Shown: positions 22,601-28,984 of the stretch, one piece after another | Layout: every line of letters starts with the position of its first letter | Numbering within the stretch: position 1 is the stretch's first letter | DNA from: a virus | Lineage: Duplodnaviria > Heunggongvirae > Uroviricota > Caudoviricetes | Virus record (IMG/VR): IMGVR_UViG_2711768166_000002 | Reading direction: 5' to 3' (one strand) | Length of the DNA stretch: 32,271 nucleotides | The notes under the pieces: model-generated | What the model was told of the DNA's origin: nothing | Database searches by the model: none | What the model saw: the letters and a program-made list of their open reading frames with translations, nothing else | Position numbers and translations under genes: made by a program

Positions 22601-24052
22601 TCAGAATCCTCCTTTCTTCTTGGACTGCGGTTCCTCGCGTTCACGTCGGCGCATTTCAGCAGACTGTTGGTCTGTGTCATAAATAGCGCCATTTGCCTGA
22701 ATGCAATACACCGTGCCGGTATTGCCATGACGATTGAGACGAAGGATTAGTTCGGTTTCACCAGGTGGAACACTGTCATCAAAAGCGCCTTCACGATGGA
22801 TCCCAACCCAATAATCGCAATCCTGTTCAATCTGCCCTGTATCTCGTGAGTCACTTGGTAATGGGCGTTTATTGGTTCGGCTTTCCAGTGCGCGGTTAAG
22901 CTGCGTCAGAAGCACAACAACGCAATCAAGCTCTTTGGCAAGGTTCTTCAGTCCTTTGGTGATCATGCCGTAAGCAAGGTCGTTGCGATCGGCCTTCTCA
23001 GCGGTCATTAGTGTCAGGTAATCGACCAGAATCATGCCAACACATCCTTTTTCTCGCTTGATTCGACGGCTTTCGCTGACGATTTGAGCCAGAGATAATC
23101 CCGGCGTGTCGTCGATGTAAAGCATGTCGATTTCACTCAAGCGATTAGCTGTTTCGATCGCCCTGTTGAAGTCACCATCGTAATCACCCTGATAGCCGTC
23201 ATCAGCGTCATTTGTCGCCGGAAGGTAAAAAATATTCGGGTTAACACCAGACTTCTGCCCTACCAGTTTTTCCAGTATCTGATCACCTGGCATTTCAAGG
23301 CTGAACATCAAAGCGGGCTTTTTCTCATGCACTGCGCAATTGATTGCCATCTGGCTGTATAGCGTCGTTTTCCCCATCTTAGGGCGAGCGCCAATGACAA
23401 ACAGAGAGCCTTTCACCAGTCCTTTCGGTGACAGCATCCTGTCCAGCGATGGGATCCCTGTGCTCATTCCTCGTTGTTCGCCTGACGGATCAAATCGCTT
23501 CTCAAGGTCGCTAACCCAGTCTTCCATGACCTCACCAAATGAGCGAAGGCCGCGACGCGATCCGGTTTTTGCATGGTCTGTCAGTTGCGTGAAAATCGCC
23601 TGAATAGCTTCGTACTTCTGCGTTGCAGTCATTCCGTTGCGGGAATAGAGCAATTCCGTCGCTTCAGTCATGCGGTTGATGGCGTAGCGTTCCATTGCGG
23701 TTTCACGAACCTGCATTGCATAGGCAACGATGTTTGCTGCGCTTGGCGTGTTCTTTGCGATCTCAGCGATATAAGCAAAACCGCCAACAGACGCCGTTAA
23801 CGATTTACGCTCCAGTTCATCGAAAAGCGTCAGGCCATCTACTGGCTTTTGCTCCCGGTGCATTCTGGTTATCTCTTCGAAAAGGATTTTGTGTGGTCGG
23901 CTGTAAAATGAATCAGGCTTCAGCATCGCCAGAACTTTCTGGACGCGCTCACTGCTGTCATCATCCAGAAGCAATCCACCAATCACCGCCTGCTCTGCCT
24001 CGATGCTATGGGGCGGCGCATAAAAATTATCGGTCATCGTGTTCACCCTCAC
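22601..24052 (-). CDS. Replicative DNA helicase, DnaB family
   Basis: 483 aa. DnaB N-terminal motif PPHSIEAEQAVIGGLLLD and Walker A GARPKMGKTT. True start may be the Met at 24037. Confidence 0.9.
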   Translation of the reverse strand: MRVNTMTDNFYAPPHSIEAEQAVIGGLLLDDDSSERVQKVLAMLKPDSFYSRPHKILFEEITRMHREQKPVDGLTLFDELERKSLTASVGGFAYIAEIAKNTPSAANIVAYAMQVRETAMERYAINRMTEATELLYSRNGMTATQKYEAIQAIFTQLTDHAKTGSRRGLRSFGEVMEDWVSDLEKRFDPSGEQRGMSTGIPSLDRMLSPKGLVKGSLFVIGARPKMGKTTLYSQMAINCAVHEKKPALMFSLEMPGDQILEKLVGQKSGVNPNIFYLPATNDADDGYQGDYDGDFNRAIETANRLSEIDMLYIDDTPGLSLAQIVSESRRIKREKGCVGMILVDYLTLMTAEKADRNDLAYGMITKGLKNLAKELDCVVVLLTQLNRALESRTNKRPLPSDSRDTGQIEQDCDYWVGIHREGAFDDSVPPGETELILRLNRHGNTGTVYCIQANGAIYDTDQQSAEMRRREREEPQSKKKGGF

Positions 24053-24917
24053 GAACTTTCAGGTAGGTATTGTCGTTAAGCAGGAAATCAAATCCCTTTT
24101 TGTGCCAGACGGTTCCGCGTTGATGGTTTGGGCGTTCTTCGAACATCCATCGGCAATTTTCGCCTACGTAGCTCAAATAATTTCTCCAGTCCTGCATCGT
24201 GAACCCATGCCCGTCAAGCTGGCGGGTTATCACTCCGGCTTTGCGCCAGAACGTTCGGATCTGGTTTTTACGCTTGTCATTCAGTGCGCGGATTCTTGGC
24301 GCTTCAGGAAGGATTTCGTGGTAAGCATCGACAACATCCTGACAGCTAACGGAAGGTTTTTTCTTGTCAGACTTTTTGTCTGCTGTGGCACTCTCTAATA
24401 CGTCAGTATTAGAGATATTATTTATATTATTGTTTATGGACAACCGTTGGACAACCGTTGGACAATCTCCGCTGAGAGCCGCGCCATTACTGGTGTTTGC
24501 GTTGGACAACCGTTGGACAACCGTTGGACAATTTTTTGCCTGAAAATCGTCATATTTAACGATTGTAAACAGGCTAAATTTCTTCCCCATCGAGCAAATA
24601 TTAAGCATCCCTTTCGACTCAAAAGTCCGTAATAAGCTCCGAACTTTGTTGTCGGGGATGAATGTTTCTCTGACCAGCGACGGGCGTCCAGTTATCATCT
24701 GACCGCGATCAACAGTTATCGGACCGATATCCGTATTGACGACAGTAGATTCGTGATTAGCCTTGAGGATTAAGTGAAGCCAAAGATGTACTGCCTGAGA
24801 GTCCTTATAGAGCCTGCTGTCCATAAACTGGCGGTGTATAGAGACATACCCCATACTGGATGCCTCCTGATGTTGTACAGGGTTATGCCTGTAATCAGCT
24901 AACTTAACGACGCCCAT
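24027..24917 (-). CDS. Replication initiator (O-like) containing the origin iterons in its coding sequence
   Basis: 296 aa with internal peptide repeats CPTVVQRLSN encoded by the direct DNA repeats. An alternative start at 24854 (MGYVSIHRQF...) has a better AGGAGG RBS. Confidence 0.8.
   Translation of the reverse strand: MGVVKLADYRHNPVQHQEASSMGYVSIHRQFMDSRLYKDSQAVHLWLHLILKANHESTVVNTDIGPITVDRGQMITGRPSLVRETFIPDNKVRSLLRTFESKGMLNICSMGKKFSLFTIVKYDDFQAKNCPTVVQRLSNANTSNGAALSGDCPTVVQRLSINNNINNISNTDVLESATADKKSDKKKPSVSCQDVVDAYHEILPEAPRIRALNDKRKNQIRTFWRKAGVITRQLDGHGFTMQDWRNYLSYVGENCRWMFEERPNHQRGTVWHKKGFDFLLNDNTYLKVREGEHDDR
24395..24535. repeat. Replication origin: two clusters of about 2.5 direct 11-bp repeats (GGACAACCGTT) flanking a 38-bp spacer, with an adjacent AT-rich region
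   Basis: Repeats at 24438..24465 and 24504..24531; AT-rich tattagagatattatttatattattgtttat at about 24408..24437. Same logic as lambda ori inside the O gene. Confidence 0.75.
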
Positions 24918-25075: not shown

Positions 25076-25142
25076 GTGGATTGATCCAGTCTTTCTACAT
25101 CAGGCCTCGAAGAATTCGCCGTTCTTCGGGGCTTTTTCTTTT
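25076..25142 (+). ncRNA. oop-like antisense RNA overlapping the cII 3' end, with intrinsic terminator
   Basis: pO-like GTCATAATGACTCCTG at 25061..25076 as in lambda. Strong hairpin GCCUCGAAGAA/UUCUUCGGGGC (25104..25132) followed by UUUUUCUUUU. Confidence 0.5.
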
Positions 25143-25378
25143 GTCAGCATTCTGGCTACTTTCTTAGCCAGTTCCGCCAACTCCTCGTCTTCAACACCCC
25201 ATTCAAGAACAGCCAGAAGCATTCCCATTTTTGGGATAAAGCTGTCTTTCCATCGCGAAATTTGCGATTCATTAATCCCTAACGCATCAGCAACCTTTCG
25301 CTGACCACGTACAGCAATTCGATTCAGGATGTTGCTTGTAATTGCATTCGCTTTCTTGCGAGTACTTGTAAGTTCCAT
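25100..25378 (-). CDS. cII: CII transcriptional activator
   Basis: Start taken at the Met preceded by AAGGAAATACTTACATATG, the same initiation context as lambda cII; contains SQISRWKDSFIPKMGMLLAVLEWGV. The ORF track extends upstream to 25465 across nutR. Confidence 0.85.
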   Translation of the reverse strand: MELTSTRKKANAITSNILNRIAVRGQRKVADALGINESQISRWKDSFIPKMGMLLAVLEWGVEDEELAELAKKVARMLTKEKAPKNGEFFEA

Positions 25379-25435
25379 ATGTAAGTATTTCCTTAACAAA
25401 TAAGAAGTTATGCGCATCAACTTATGCGCGTTGTA

Positions 25436-25480
25436 TTCCCGCATTTCGGCGGGAATGAGGACCATGACTGTTAAAGAGCA
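25436..25480 (-). promoter_or_regulatory. nutR (boxA GCTCTTTAA plus boxB hairpin UCCCGCCGAAAUGCGGGA)
   Basis: boxB is the same sequence, on the transcribed strand, as the nutL boxB; located between cro and cII. Confidence 0.6.
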
Positions 25481-25486
25481 ATTTGC

Positions 25487-25672
25487 TTATGCCGCTTTGC
25501 GGTAAGCGCTTTCTTGATACTTCAGGGCGCCAGCTGTAACGACTTCCAGTCGATAGGCGTCTTTCTCTGGGATGACTTCCTTCCACTGAGAGACTGCTGC
25601 GTCGCTAATGCCTAACGCTTTAGCTACAGCACGCTGGGTTCCGAAGTGGTCGATAACATCTTTCTTGTACAT
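25487..25672 (-). CDS. cro: Cro repressor, P22-type
   Basis: 61 aa, MYKKDVIDHFGTQRAVAKALGISDAAVSQWKEVIPEKDAYRLEVVTAGALKYQESAYRKAA, matches P22 Cro as recalled. Confidence 0.95.
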   Translation of the reverse strand: MYKKDVIDHFGTQRAVAKALGISDAAVSQWKEVIPEKDAYRLEVVTAGALKYQESAYRKAA

Positions 25673-25752
25673 AGACTCGCTCCGAAATTAAAGAACACTT
25701 AAATTATCCACTAAAGGAATCTTAAGTCAAGTTTATTTAAGATGTCTTAACT
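25673..25752. promoter_or_regulatory. OR operator region with divergent PR/PRM (three P22-type operator sites)
   Basis: Partially palindromic sites AATTAAAGAACACTTAAATT, ACTAAAGGAATCTTAAGT and ATTTAAGATGTCTTAACT between the cro and c2 starts. Confidence 0.75.
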
Positions 25753-26403
25753 ATGAAAACTCAATTGATGGGAGAGCGCATTCGCGCTCGGAGAAAAGAA
25801 CTCAAGATCAGGCAGGCCGCACTTGGAAAGATGGTCGGCGTGTCTAATGTTGCCATATCTCAGTGGGAACGCTCTGAGACAGAGCCAAATGGAGAGAATC
25901 TTCTCGCCCTGGCTAATGCGTTGAAGTGTTCCCCTGACTATCTGATGAAAGGAGAGGAAAGTCTTTCAAACATTGCCTATCACAGTAGGCATGATCCAAG
26001 AGGGTCATACCCTCTGATTAGCTGGGTGAGCGCAGGATGCTGGATGGAAGCTGTAGAACCATATCATAAGCGTGCAATAGATAACTGGTACGATACAACC
26101 GTAGACTGTTCAGACGATTCGTTTTGGTTGGACGTGAAGGGAGACTCAATGACGGCTCCGGCCGGTCTCAGTATCCCTGAAGGAATGATAATACTCGTCG
26201 ATCCTGAAGTAGAGCCGCGTAACGGGAAACTGGTAGTTGCAAAGCTCGAAGGAGAAAACGAGGCAACTTTCAAGAAGTTAGTTATTGATGCAGGCAGGAA
26301 GTTTCTAAAACCACTTAACCCACAATATCCGATGATCGAGATCAACGGGAACTGCAAAATCATCGGCGTAGTTGTCGATGCAAAACTAGCAAACCTTCCA
26401 TAA
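25753..26403 (+). CDS. c2: C2 prophage repressor (P22 immC type, LexA-like autocleavage domain)
   Basis: 216 aa, MKTQLMGERIRARRKELKIRQAALGKMVGVSNVAISQWERSETEPNGENLLALANALKCSPDYL..., near-identical to P22 C2 as recalled. Confidence 0.95.
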   Translation: MKTQLMGERIRARRKELKIRQAALGKMVGVSNVAISQWERSETEPNGENLLALANALKCSPDYLMKGEESLSNIAYHSRHDPRGSYPLISWVSAGCWMEAVEPYHKRAIDNWYDTTVDCSDDSFWLDVKGDSMTAPAGLSIPEGMIILVDPEVEPRNGKLVVAKLEGENEATFKKLVIDAGRKFLKPLNPQYPMIEINGNCKIIGVVVDAKLANLP

Positions 26404-26427
26404 GGGGGCATTCGCCCCTTTTTTTTA
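26404..26427 (+). terminator. Intrinsic terminator after c2
   Basis: Stem GGGGC/GCCCC with loop ATTC followed by T8. Confidence 0.75.
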
Positions 26428-26439
26428 TTTCCTTTAAAA

Positions 26440-26530
26440 ATCAAAGCCAAACTTAAGTTACGAAAGAAAATTTAAGTTTTCTTCAAAAATACTCTTGACC
26501 ATTAATTAAAGAGATCTTAAATTTAAGCCA
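26440..26530 (+). promoter_or_regulatory. OL operators and PL promoter
   Basis: -35 TTGACC (26495..26500), 17-bp spacer, -10 TAAATT (26518..26523). Operator-like palindrome AATTAAAGAGATCTTAAATT overlaps the promoter. Confidence 0.65.
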
Positions 26531-26569
26531 TCAGCAGGACGCTGGTAGCCAAACGGAACAGATTGGCAG

Positions 26570-26610
26570 GCTCTTTAACATTGATGGGATTGTCCCGCCG
26601 AAATGCGGGA
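26570..26610 (+). promoter_or_regulatory. nutL (boxA GCTCTTTAA, boxB UCCCGCCGAAAUGCGGGA)
   Basis: Same boxA/boxB pair as nutR; located between PL and N. Confidence 0.6.
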
Positions 26611-26717
26611 ACCAAAGAGTAGTTGGCTTTGGGGTGACGTGAAGTGCAGCTGCACGACGGCAACCGGAAGATAAGCACCCGGCGCGTCACCGCCAAAGTC
26701 AATCATCGGAGGTCAAC

Positions 26718-27017
26718 ATGACAGTAGTCATTACATATCTGGCTGACGATAACGCCAGAAATCGCCGCAGAGCACGCAGACAGGCTCAACGTGAACAGGC
26801 AATGCAAGAGCAGCGACTGGCGCGAAAAATTGCGCTAAAGCTCTCTGGTTGCGTCAGAGCAGATAAAGCAGCATCGCTCGGAAGCCTTCGCTGCAAGAAG
26901 GCAGAAGAAGTCGAGCGTAAACAGAACCGTATTTACTACCGCAAGCCACGCAGTGAAATGGGTGTGACTTGTGTTGGTCGCCAGAAAATGAAATTAGGCA
27001 GCAAACCACTTATTTGA
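26718..27017 (+). CDS. N: Antiterminator N
   Basis: 99 aa. N-terminal Arg-rich motif NARNRRRARRQAQRE; C-terminus RIYYRKPRSEMGVTCVGRQKMKLGSKPLI resembles the lambda/phage 21 N C-terminus as recalled. Confidence 0.85.
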   Translation: MTVVITYLADDNARNRRRARRQAQREQAMQEQRLARKIALKLSGCVRADKAASLGSLRCKKAEEVERKQNRIYYRKPRSEMGVTCVGRQKMKLGSKPLI

Positions 27018-27025
27018 GGTGATAT

Positions 27026-27330: not shown

Positions 27331-27356
27331 AGGCCGCATAGTCGGCCTTCTTTTGG
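27331..27356 (+). terminator. Intrinsic terminator between the two accessory genes
   Basis: Stem aggccg/cggcct with loop catagt followed by tcttttgg. Confidence 0.6.
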
Positions 27357-27873: not shown

Positions 27874-27977
27874 TACGAATAAGCACTGTGTATTCATTCC
27901 AACGAGTGAATACACGGAGCAATGTCGCTCGTAACTAAACAGGAGCCGACTTGTTCTGATTATTGGAAATCTTCTTT

Positions 27978-28003
27978 GCCCTCCAATGTGAGGGCGATTT
28001 TTT
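27978..28003 (+). terminator. Intrinsic terminator after the 156-aa gene
   Basis: Stem gccctc/gagggc with loop caatgt followed by gatttttt. Confidence 0.6.
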
Positions 28004-28015
28004 GATGGAGGATAT

Positions 28016-28984
28016 ATGAGTGAAGTAACAGATTTAGTTGTTATTGAAAAAGCAAATGCAATGACTGTATTTCAGTCTGCCGACCAGATTGAAGAAATCC
28101 TTCAAAAGGTTGAACGTGAAGTTATGTCCTTTGTGCCTGATATCACAACGGCAAAGGGCAGAAAGGAGATCGCTTCTCTGGCGTATAAAGTTGCGCAGAC
28201 GAAAACATATCTCGATGGTCTTGGCAAAGACCTTGTTGCTGAACTGAAGGAAATTCCAAAGCTAATTGATGCCAACCGCAAGACAGTGCGCGATCGCCTT
28301 GATGAACTGAAAGCCAAGGCGCGCCAGCCTCTTACTGATTATGAGGAAGAACAGGCGCGGATTAAAGCCGAAGAAGAAGCTAAGGCAGCAGCTGAAGCTC
28401 TCGCAAAGCAAATTGAGTCTGACCATGAAATAGCGATTTTGATGGATCGCGAATTTGACCGCCAAAGAGAAGAGGCAAGACTCAAAGCGGAGCAGGAAAA
28501 GCGAGAGCATGAAGAACGCTTACAAAGAGAAGCTGAAGAGAAAGCCAGAGCTGAAGCCGAAGCAAAGGCAAAAGCCGAAATTGAAGCAGCAGCAAGGCGA
28601 GAAGCAGAAGCTAAGGCCGCAGCGGAACGTGCAGAGCGTGAACGCATTGAAGCCGAGCAACGAGCACAGCGCGAAGCAAAAGAGGCAGCAGAACGAGCTG
28701 AAAGAGAAAAGCAGGCGGCAATTGAAGCAGAACGCCGAAAAGCACAGGAGGAGGCTGAACGAATCCGGCGCGAGGCTGAAGCAAAAGAGCAAGCCAGAAT
28801 AGCAGAAGAAAAAAGAATCAAGGACGAAGAAGAGCGTAGAGCAAAGGATAAAGCTCACCGGAAAGAAGTAAATAACAAAATACTTGCTGACCTTATCAAG
28901 GTTGGCGCACCAGAAGATGTTGCTAAAAATATCATAACAGCCATCGTAAAAGGCGAAGTATTCGCAACAAAAATAACCTACTAA
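28016..28984 (+). CDS. Coiled-coil protein with a long Ala/Glu/Lys/Arg-rich low-complexity central region (TolA-domain-II-like composition)
   Basis: 322 aa. GGAGG RBS. Central region of about 175 aa is AEAKAKAEIEAAARREAEAKAAAERAERERIEAEQRAQREAKEAAERAEREKQ-like repeats. Confidence 0.65.
   Translation: MSEVTDLVVIEKANAMTVFQSADQIEEILQKVEREVMSFVPDITTAKGRKEIASLAYKVAQTKTYLDGLGKDLVAELKEIPKLIDANRKTVRDRLDELKAKARQPLTDYEEEQARIKAEEEAKAAAEALAKQIESDHEIAILMDREFDRQREEARLKAEQEKREHEERLQREAEEKARAEAEAKAKAEIEAAARREAEAKAAAERAERERIEAEQRAQREAKEAAERAEREKQAAIEAERRKAQEEAERIRREAEAKEQARIAEEKRIKDEEERRAKDKAHRKEVNNKILADLIKVGAPEDVAKNIITAIVKGEVFATKITY

Follow-up and report, generated by a model that had tools for sequence, protein, structure and literature searches.

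Does the region between 25 kb and 27 kb of a 32,271-nucleotide stretch of caudoviral DNA (IMG/VR record IMGVR_UViG_2711768166_000002, in its full length referred to as the window) encode an N antiterminator together with two cognate boxB hairpins, and do the arginine-rich motif (ARM) of the protein and the hairpins form a specificity pair of their own? We consider it about 90% probable that this region serves an HK620-like (P22-like, Lederbergvirus) Escherichia coli prophage as its module for early antitermination and that ARM and boxB constitute a matched pair of the HK620 type. By analogy with the lambda/P22/phage 21 paradigm, on which the assigned role in antitermination rests, N and its two matching boxB RNA hairpins are the ordinary early-gene switch that a lambda-like prophage carries. 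For the module, direct observation covers sequences, folds, homology, synteny and the linkage of ARM and boxB.

The gene order cII - nutR - cro - OR - cI - pL - nutL - N is that of lambdoid phages as judged from the ORF map, Pfam and PHROG, and the annotated records of phage 21, HK620 and P22 show a collinear layout. The pL operon begins with N, from which pR, cro and cII diverge across the repressor gene. The latter encodes a cI/C2-type prophage repressor of 216 aa (25753..26403, plus strand; Pfam HTH_3 and Peptidase_S24), shares about 85% nucleotide identity with the imm21 region and is followed by a terminator that was found by a terminator scan (26402-26421). A pR-like promoter (TTGACT, 16 nt, GATAAT; 25703..25730, minus strand) matches the consensus in 10/12 positions, resides at the OR/pR position of phage 21 with 96-100% identity, and would serve cro, nutR and cII. 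The cro gene (61 aa; 25487..25672, minus strand) was identified by Pfam P22_Cro with an E value of 8.7e-28 and is labelled cro in CUS-3 and lytic repressor in phage 21. The gene for cII (96 aa; 25100..25390, minus strand, ATG at 25390; Pfam Phage_CII, E 1.4e-42) is the first one past nutR and tR1. On the other side, the consensus scan yielded a pL-like promoter (TTGACC, 17 nt, TAAATT; 26495..26523, plus strand) that aligns with OL1/pL of phage 21, where the annotated pL start corresponds approximately to window position 26528. A long leader hairpin (26622..26703, plus strand; fold of 26530-26730, z -2.9) extends between boxB-L and the ribosome-binding site of N (GGAGG, 26708-26712, plus strand). 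The base of its stem is conserved in phage 21, P22 and Enterobacter relatives, and its role is presumably comparable to that of the lambda N leader. Each early transcript carries a nut site, with boxA preceding the boxB hairpin, and terminator-like sites further downstream. In the pL operon, the consensus scan revealed hairpins followed by T-runs that are candidates for tL1 (27331..27348, plus strand) and tL2 (27976..27997, plus strand). In the folded nutR transcript, a second hairpin, GCGCAU-AAGUUG-AUGCGC (25412..25429, minus strand), appears just past boxB-R, where tR1 is annotated in HK620, and may have the same function.

The N protein comprises 99 aa, begins with MTVVITYLADDNARNRRRARRQAQRE (26718..27017, plus strand) and matches PHROG 271, 'anti-termination protein N-like', with an E value of 4.8e-37. 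It is homologous to the N proteins of CUS-3, HK620, mEp213, phage 21 and lambda, and at the C-terminus it aligns with chain N of PDB 6GOV, which is lambda N (E 2.5e-4). With Pfam N_peptide (PF25694) it scored 20.2 bits, below the gathering cut-off of 27.9 bits, and NCBIfam held no matching model. When the 39-residue ARM peptide was used alone in tblastn searches, no match was obtained, presumably because of low-complexity masking, while the full protein did find matches. Three modules can be discerned: residues 1-36 with an HK620-type N-terminus and the ARM, residues 37-64, a middle part common to HK620 and phage 21, and residues 65-99, a C-terminus of the phage 21/lambda type. Residues 1-64 are 98-100% identical to N from HK620 and mEp213. 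The original prediction that the extreme N-terminus resembles that of P22 proved correct, as the P22 gene 24 protein (PDB 1A4T) starts with MTVITYG compared with MTVVITY in the window; this likeness is confined to the first seven residues, and the middle and C-terminal parts of P22 N are unrelated. The proposed likeness of the C-terminus to phage 21 was also borne out, with 96.8% identity to phage 21 N over residues 37-99. N is a recombinant, in which an HK620-type ARM is joined to the middle part that HK620 and phage 21 have in common and to a C-terminus of the phage 21 type, and it adjoins an imm21-like repressor region. The C-terminal part of the protein is freely exchanged by recombination.

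The ARM, NARNRRRARRQAQREQA, occupies codons 12-28 (26751..26801, plus strand) and is recognised by its invariant residues and by a drop in identity to phage 21. Ala13, Arg16, Arg20 and Arg21 are invariant across N proteins of lambda, P22, phage 21 and the HK620 type, and correspond to Ala3, Arg6, Arg10 and Arg11 of lambda N (PDB 1QFQ; complex 6GOV). The motif had originally been described as unusual. This cannot be upheld because it fits the standard N pattern A-x-x-R-x-x-x-R-R in the same register as in lambda, P22 and phage 21. The window's protein shares with lambda N a homologous C-terminal RNA polymerase-binding segment, and the two systems agree in gene order and overall logic. The protein differs from lambda N by the ten-residue extension MTVVITYLAD, which the lambda protein lacks, and by Ala28 in the place of lambda Trp18.

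Both nut sites were located where the original prediction had placed them, as were the N reading frame and the boxA elements, and a chance check backs them. On the pL transcript, boxA GCTCTTTAA (26570-26578, plus strand) corresponds in the alignment to boxA-L as annotated in phage 21 and falls within annotated nutL of HK620. It is followed by the boxB hairpin UCCCGC-CGAAAU-GCGGGA (26593-26610, plus strand), the 18-mer TCCCGCCGAAATGCGGGA, which is the same as in annotated HK620 nutL and folds into a 6-bp stem with a hexaloop (-10.5 kcal/mol, z -3.1). On the minus strand, boxA GCTCTTTAA (25471-25479) aligns with annotated boxA-R of phage 21 within annotated HK620 nutR, and boxB takes the form AUUCCCGC-CGAAAU-GCGGGAAU (25435..25456), again as in HK620 nutR, with an 8-bp stem and a hexaloop (-12.5 kcal/mol, z -3.7). 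Each hairpin is the minimum-energy fold, and in neither case did any of 200 shuffled sequences fold as well. The hairpin at nutR thus stands as originally claimed, with the span then given (25436-25455) corresponding to the exact 18-mer (25437-25454, minus strand) plus one base pair on each side. This copy sits, inverted, after pR and cro, and the nutL copy after pL. Even when up to three mismatches were allowed, TCCCGCCGAAATGCGGGA occurred exactly twice in the 32 kb, compared with 0.02 copies expected from shuffled sequences, none of 100 of which contained two. The only two copies of GCTCTTTAA in the window are those at the nut sites. The loop is the 6-nt CGAAAU at both hairpins, and the distance from boxA, which has the consensus form GCUCUUUAA, to boxB amounts to 14-16 nt. 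Rfam at gathering thresholds gave no match in the window; the database contains no boxB or nut family.

In principle, the hairpins could be ordinary RNA elements such as terminators or sites modulating RNase III or Rho, made identical when one arm of the immunity region recently converted the other. The boxB hairpin is a GC-rich palindrome, exact copies of which occur singly by chance in unrelated bacterial genomes, and at nutR boxB is followed by the second hairpin and a T-rich stretch. We regard this explanation as very improbable. Each boxB lies at its set distance from a consensus boxA, at the position annotated as boxB in phage 21 and HK620, and the hairpins travel with one ARM type over unrelated immunity cassettes. 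The loop is invariant and the stem co-varies: in a small, hand-picked set of six sequences, double changes between HK620-type and phage 21-type variants affect seven of the eight boxB stem pairs, a score that none of 500 shuffles reached, and a natural nutR variant retains the loop with a G-C pair of the stem replaced by A-U. The reading as terminators was rejected on the basis of the boxA context and the absence of a T-run after either boxB.

With the hairpins thus best read as boxB elements of nut sites, their closest known counterparts are found in HK620 (NC_002730/AF335538; Lederbergvirus HK620), which is 96% identical to the window over 66% of the window's first 25 kb. Its boxA-spacer-boxB segment at nutL and its boxA-to-boxB segment at nutR are identical to those in the window, and our knowledge of these sites in HK620 stems from the GenBank record, where they are annotated as putative nutL and nutR ('putative N-utilization'). 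The leader from nutL to N differs by one base, and residues 1-64 of HK620 N are about 98% identical, including the entire ARM. The two phages part company at the C-terminus of N, which is of the P22 type in HK620 (...ICLPNVAIYAAGYRKSKQLTAR) and of the phage 21/lambda type in the window (...RKPRSEMGVTCVGRQKMKLGSKPLI), and in the immunity region, as cI, cro and the operators of HK620 are unrelated to the imm21-like set in the window. The complete arrangement is present in CUS-3 (CP000711), the prophage of E. coli K1 RS218, which is 99% identical in the region 25400-27020 as well as over all 99 residues of N. The same nut sites and imm21-like cI/cro are found in CUS-3 and also in phages N7, IME10, Gally, JEP4 and 611R6. 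In CUS-3, nutL and the start of N are set further apart than in the window by an insertion of about 206 bp, and in the record of this phage the nut sites are unannotated and the region is labelled 'bsq5; boundary sequence'. As far as sequence and annotation are concerned, the N/boxB pair is therefore already known, from HK620 for residues 1-64 and the nut sites and from CUS-3 for the whole protein. The original prediction had named identity to an already characterised phage pair as the outcome that would speak against it. Such identity exists for sequence and annotation and does not extend to wet-lab characterisation, as our literature search found no experimental test of specificity, binding or antitermination for HK620-type N/boxB. 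With occurrences in 526 out of 5426 complete genomes of E. coli, about one in ten, the N/nut segment is common. An exact-match scan of one genome per species returned mostly single chance hairpins in unrelated bacteria and is uninformative on distribution. The only matches that seemed relevant were from Escherichia sp. E1V33, Tatumella and a contig binned as Segatella copri, which carries an inverted site pair with the same sequences as those from E. coli.

How the pair relates to the established types is seen most clearly in comparison with phage 21 (OL657228; N peptide-boxB structure PDB 1NYB). The cro-OR-cI-pL-boxA region is 75-100% identical between the two, as are codons 37-99 of N at 96-100%. 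Against this background, the level of identity drops to 29-54% in three places, namely boxB-L, the codons of the ARM, and boxB-R with the sequence outward of it. Resolved further, it amounts to 46-54% at boxB-L compared with 79-100% in the flanks, and to 29-67% at the ARM codons compared with 96-100% downstream. At nutR, divergence extends past boxB into tR1 and cII, so that this site is a junction within a mosaic and not a point replacement. The boxB elements have the same position and architecture (6-7 bp stem and 6-nt loop in phage 21) and share C as the first and A as the third and fourth loop bases. The stem sequences differ, as do the loops (CUAACC in phage 21, CGAAAU in the window) and the ARMs (GTAKSRYKARRAELIAERR in phage 21, DNARNRRRARRQAQREQAM in the window). 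The window thus departs from the phage 21 specificity class (ARM GTAKSRYKARRAELIAERR, CUAACC hexaloop) on both counts, and is phage 21-like only in the middle and C-terminal parts of N and in the flanking DNA. The phage 21 loop adopts a GNRA-like fold made up of a C-C flanking pair and UAAC (PMC12550061), and the C-GAAA-U loop looks like a true GNRA version of this hexaloop. Neither does the window fit the lambda class (ARM MDAQTRRRERRAEKQAQW, GAAAA/GAAGA pentaloop), whose boxB is GCCCU-GAAGA/GAAAA-AGGGC and whose boxA is CGCUCUUA as opposed to the consensus GCUCUUUAA, nor that of P22 gp24 (ARM GNAKTRRHERRRKLAIERD, GACAA pentaloop with an extruded C). P22 shares the consensus form of boxA with the window, and its nutR boxB, CCGC-C-GACAA-C-GCGG, differs from the window's core CCGC-C-GAAA-U-GCGG mainly in the looped-out C and the 3' flanking base.

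Further evidence comes from the association of ARM and boxB across phages. Across 15 reference phages, each of four ARM types corresponds to a single boxB type of its own, with no mixed combination, while the C-terminal types of N assort independently. The exact ARM DNARNRRRARRQAQREQAM is present in HK620, mEp213 N2 and phi296, and prophages of Enterobacter and Salmonella have the same ARM and boxB core combined with an N backbone that is P22-like. When IMG/VR loci were picked by nutL DNA alone and contigs long enough for the check were retained, 115 of 115 viral contigs encoded the HK620 ARM type (105 exactly, ten with one substitution, none with another type). Conversely, all 78 loci that were picked by the N protein and reached both nut sites have the same boxB at nutL and nutR. 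These 78 loci cover at least five unrelated immunity cassettes, one of them with lambda cI. Taken comparatively, there is strong support for ARM and boxB as a linked specificity pair distinct from that of lambda, and here the central claim of the original prediction, that of an N antiterminator accompanied by two cognate boxB hairpins identical to each other and unlike those of lambda, holds up at the level of sequence comparison.

A related question is whether the HK620-type pair is a separate specificity at all. The module could be a genuine N/nut module whose boxB has a GNRA-like loop just like those of lambda, P22 and phage 21, so that N proteins of other types, above all those of P22 or phage 21, may cross-activate it or the reverse may apply. 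The ARM register of one alanine and three arginines is common to the other N types, the hairpin resembles P22 nutR, and the geometry of its hexaloop is that of phage 21 with its C-C flanked GNRA-like fold (PMC12550061). Furthermore, an HK620-type N has been retained in mEp213 together with a lambda-type N and a lambda nutL, without an intact cognate boxB, from which it follows that an HK620-type ARM gene can persist unlinked. We nevertheless consider this explanation unlikely, since the two types are linked in 115/115 and 78/78 loci without mixed combinations in the 15 reference phages, and since divergence from the otherwise close phage 21 region is concentrated on ARM and boxB, just as a specificity switch would give. 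If a separate specificity is accepted, the HK620-type pair may represent a fourth natural solution to N-peptide/boxB recognition, a proposal we put forward tentatively and to which we give slightly less than even odds. It would consist of a true GAAA tetraloop without extruded base, flanked by C and U in the hexaloop, and of an ARM lacking the stacking residue Trp18 of lambda. Such a loop would be the GNRA equivalent both of that in phage 21 (C-C plus UAAC) and of P22 nutR minus its looped-out C.

On the paradigm of lambda, P22 and phage 21, from which binding, use of Nus factors and antitermination activity are predicted for HK620-type N and nut, the module would work as follows. The transcripts from pL and pR would each bear a nut site with the consensus boxA GCUCUUUAA and, 14-16 nt further on, the boxB hairpin. 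N, produced as the first pL gene product, would bind this hairpin by way of the arginine-rich helix at its N-terminus, recruit NusA through its middle and contact RNA polymerase through its C-terminal part, in keeping with the roles described for the N domains, where the ARM serves boxB, the centre NusA and the C-terminus RNA polymerase (PMC3526286). Together with NusB/NusE on boxA and with NusG, polymerase would become resistant to tR1 past nutR and to the two terminator-like sites past N. The ARM NARNRRRARRQAQRE and boxB (stem CCCGC/GCGGG, loop C-GAAA-U) would act as a matched pair of the type first seen in HK620 and distinct from those of lambda, P22 and phage 21.

As a discovery the module carries little weight, given that it was deposited and annotated with HK620 and CUS-3 and is common in E. 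coli. Modular evolution can be seen here with textbook clarity, as the set of ARM, boxB-L and boxB-R has stayed together over five or more immunity cassettes and likewise five or more C-terminal types of N. Provided that it does not cross-react with the pairs of lambda, P22 and phage 21, the HK620-type pair would add one more ready-made tool for peptide-RNA tethering, and a truly orthogonal C-GAAA-U loop/ARM pair could serve both RNA-tethering tools and the understanding of how N specificities diverged. If the proposed fourth solution is real, it would be a natural intermediate for studying changes in ARM/hairpin specificity.

The gene order in the window is that of the conventional lambda map read in reverse. 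It comprises cII (25100-25390, minus strand; Pfam Phage_CII), a hairpin pair with boxA between cII and cro, cro (25487-25672, minus strand; P22_Cro), an operator/promoter region, a cI/C2-type repressor gene with its terminator (25753-26403, plus strand; HTH_3 plus Peptidase_S24), a pL-like promoter, a boxA with hairpin (nutL) and an ORF of 99 codons with the start MTVVITYLADDNARNRRRARRQAQRE (26718-27017, plus strand), whose flanking genes are in lambdoid order. Terminator-like sites reside downstream of this ORF at 27331-27348 and 27976-27997, and a second hairpin is present 3' of the nutR boxB, where the HK620 record places tR1. The window as a whole represents an HK620-like, P22-like prophage (in the first 25 kb, 66% of the sequence aligns to HK620 at 96% identity).

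Judged by homology, ORF 26718-27017 is the N antiterminator. While its score for Pfam N_peptide is under the cut-off, the protein matches PHROG 271 ('anti-termination protein N-like', E 4.8e-37), and its C-terminal 38 residues can be aligned to the lambda N chain of 6GOV, a structure of the antitermination complex. It is a three-part mosaic consisting of an HK620-type N-terminus and arginine-rich motif (ARM; residues 1-36), a middle segment common to HK620, phage 21 and VT1-Sakai (residues 37-64) and a phage 21/lambda-type C-terminus (residues 65-99); over residues 37-99, identity to phage 21 N is 96.8%. The original prediction described the ARM as unusual. This cannot be upheld, because the motif aligns without gaps with those of lambda, P22 and phage 21, and A13, R16, R20 and R21 are invariant.

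The two identical boxB hairpins, each with a boxA, proved to be present as predicted. Even with up to three mismatches allowed, the 18-mer TCCCGCCGAAATGCGGGA has just two copies in the 32 kb (26593-26610, plus strand; 25437-25454, minus strand), compared with 0.02 copies expected from shuffles. BoxA (GCTCTTTAA) likewise occurs only twice in the window, 14 and 16 nt 5' of the respective hairpins on the transcripts. At both nut sites the minimum-energy fold is a stable hairpin with the loop CGAAAU, on a stem of 6 bp at nutL (z -3.1) and 8 bp at nutR (z -3.7). Stem pairing covaries, with double changes in 7 of 8 pairs and the observed score reached by none of 500 shuffles, in a small set that we selected ourselves, comprising six boxB sequences of HK620 or phage 21 type.

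That ARM and boxB form a matched specificity pair distinct from that of lambda, as had been proposed, is well supported by four independent comparisons of sequence. Relative to phage 21, which has annotated nut sites, identity of the window amounts to 75-100% across cro, operators, cI, pL and boxA, 96-100% for N codons 37-99 and 75-83% for the leader from the nutL boxB to N, but collapses to 29-54% at the nutL boxB, at the ARM codons and outward from the nutR boxB. Within a module that is homologous elsewhere, divergence has thus been fastest in ARM and boxB. Among 15 reference phages, four ARM types were found, each paired with a boxB of its own, and the types of C-terminus assort independently: the lambda type (lambda, Sf6, HK542, the first N of mEp213) with GCCCUGAAGAAGGGC; the P22 type (P22, an Stx2a phage, Cronobacter ENT47670) with GCGCUGACAAAGCGC at nutL and CCGCCGACAACGCGG at nutR; the phage 21 type (phage 21, VT1-Sakai, mEp235) with hairpins carrying the loop CUAACC; and the HK620 type (window, CUS-3, HK620, phi296, Stx2c_EH1904) with UCCCGC-CGAAAU-GCGGGA. 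Note that Stx2c_EH1904, whose N ORF was missed by the ARM scan, was typed by its boxB and by N residues 1-74, which match at 87.8%. In 80 loci selected by N protein, boxB was identical at nutL and nutR in all 78 that reach both sites, and the DNA between these sites represents five or more mutually unrelated immunity cassettes, among them those with lambda cI and HK620 cI. Conversely, 120 loci were selected by nutL DNA only. In all 115 that extend far enough downstream, N carries the HK620 ARM type (105 exact, 10 with a single substitution); none of them has another type, and their N proteins have at least five kinds of C-terminus.

The novelty implied originally does not stand, as the pair is of the HK620 type, which has long been deposited and annotated and is very common. 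HK620 (NC_002730 / AF335538) shares with the window the exact nutL boxA-spacer-boxB and nutR boxA-to-boxB sequences, and N residues 1-64 at 98% identity with the ARM unchanged, hence the assignment; the nutL-to-N leader differs by one base, and HK620 N has a P22-type C-terminus instead of the phage 21/lambda type. The GenBank record lists 'nutL; putative N-utilization leftward' and 'nutR; putative N-utilization rightward'. Window positions 25400-27020 share 99% identity with CUS-3, N7, IME10, Gally and JEP4, and N is 99% identical to that of CUS-3. Of 5426 complete E. coli genomes, 526 carry the nutL-plus-ARM segment, N proteins with 96-100% full-length identity are encoded on no fewer than 80 IMG/VR contigs, and the ARM and boxB core also occurs in Enterobacter and Salmonella prophages on a P22-like N backbone.

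The pL operon of mEp213 (NC_019720; positions 700-2773 of the locus compared) contains two N genes, the first lambda-type with an exact lambda nutL and the second, 1.1 kb downstream, HK620-type. The sole boxB near the latter is degenerate (GCCCTCCGAAATGCGGGA, stem G to T; 2125-2142), 375 nt upstream and without boxA. The HK620-type protein has the appearance of an orphan antiterminator or a relic.

Of the two partners, boxB is the more interesting. The boxB loop, C-GAAA-U, matches C-UAAC-C of phage 21 in its six-nucleotide geometry; the latter adopts a GNRA-like fold with a flanking C-C pair in the solved complex (1NYB), and the GACAA loop of P22 extrudes a C (PMC12550061). Compared with P22 nutR (CCGC-C-GACAA-C-GCGG), the core differs mainly in lacking the extra C. 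As a structural guess from sequence, the element may form a true GAAA tetraloop that extrudes no base and is seated on a pyrimidine pair, C-U. A natural variant of the HK620-type nutR boxB, GCTCCCAC-CGAAAT-GTCGGAGC, in which the loop is retained, one G-C pair is changed to A-U and a single C-C mismatch is present, was seen in Tatumella punctata (locus L099, 5632-5680, plus strand) and in another compared locus, L116 (2010-2051, minus strand). The latter encodes N with ARM substitutions (RRQAQ to RRALQ), and its nutL boxB stays standard.

Between the nutL boxB and the Shine-Dalgarno sequence of N, a long, stable leader hairpin (26622-26703, plus strand; fold z -2.9) is reminiscent of the RNase III-sensitive hairpin in the leader of lambda N. 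The phage 21, P22 and Enterobacter relatives retain the base of its stem (TTGGCTTTGG / CCAAAGYCAAT). In CUS-3, an insertion of about 206 bp, absent from the window, separates nutL from the N start (about 2810-3015 of the CUS-3 locus, corresponding to window 26702/26703); it holds a short ORF-like ATG and a CCCCG...CGGGG hairpin and is also carried by many E. coli prophages. Distances from boxB to N in IMG/VR loci are mainly about 100 or about 300-350 nt, with a few others.

Further features were noted nearby. A strong plus-strand terminator-like hairpin of 14 pairs (25102-25134) overlaps the cII 3' end, at the position where lambda and P22 have the terminator of the oop antisense RNA. Tandem 11-nt iterons (GTTGGACAACC) in two clusters of three (24437-24477 and 24503-24543, 66 nt apart) fall within a replication-initiator ORF (24027-24917, minus strand) and probably constitute the phage replication origin. 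In the pL operon, a 322-aa ORF (28016-28984, plus strand) with extreme E, A, K and R content and long EAKA/AERA runs probably forms a coiled coil; Sf6 (gene 33) and mEp213 have ORFs of equal length (969 bp) at the matching position.

Going by the homologous systems of lambda, P22 and phage 21, N would be made from pL, and its N-terminal arginine-rich helix would bind boxB in the pL and pR transcripts as they emerge. NusA would be contacted by the central segment and RNA polymerase by the C-terminal one, the roles summarised for these N domains (PMC3526286), while NusB/NusE would occupy the consensus boxA. The modified polymerase could then read through tR1 and both terminator-like sites downstream of N.

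As in the epsilon34 genome paper, 'new' N specificities are routinely predicted from divergent N-termini (PMC2629481). Our literature searches, whose coverage did not extend to the HK620 and CUS-3 genome papers, returned neither the ARM and boxB strings nor a test of HK620-type specificity. The remaining value of the HK620-type class lies in its being a specificity that, according to the literature searched, has apparently never been taken to the bench.
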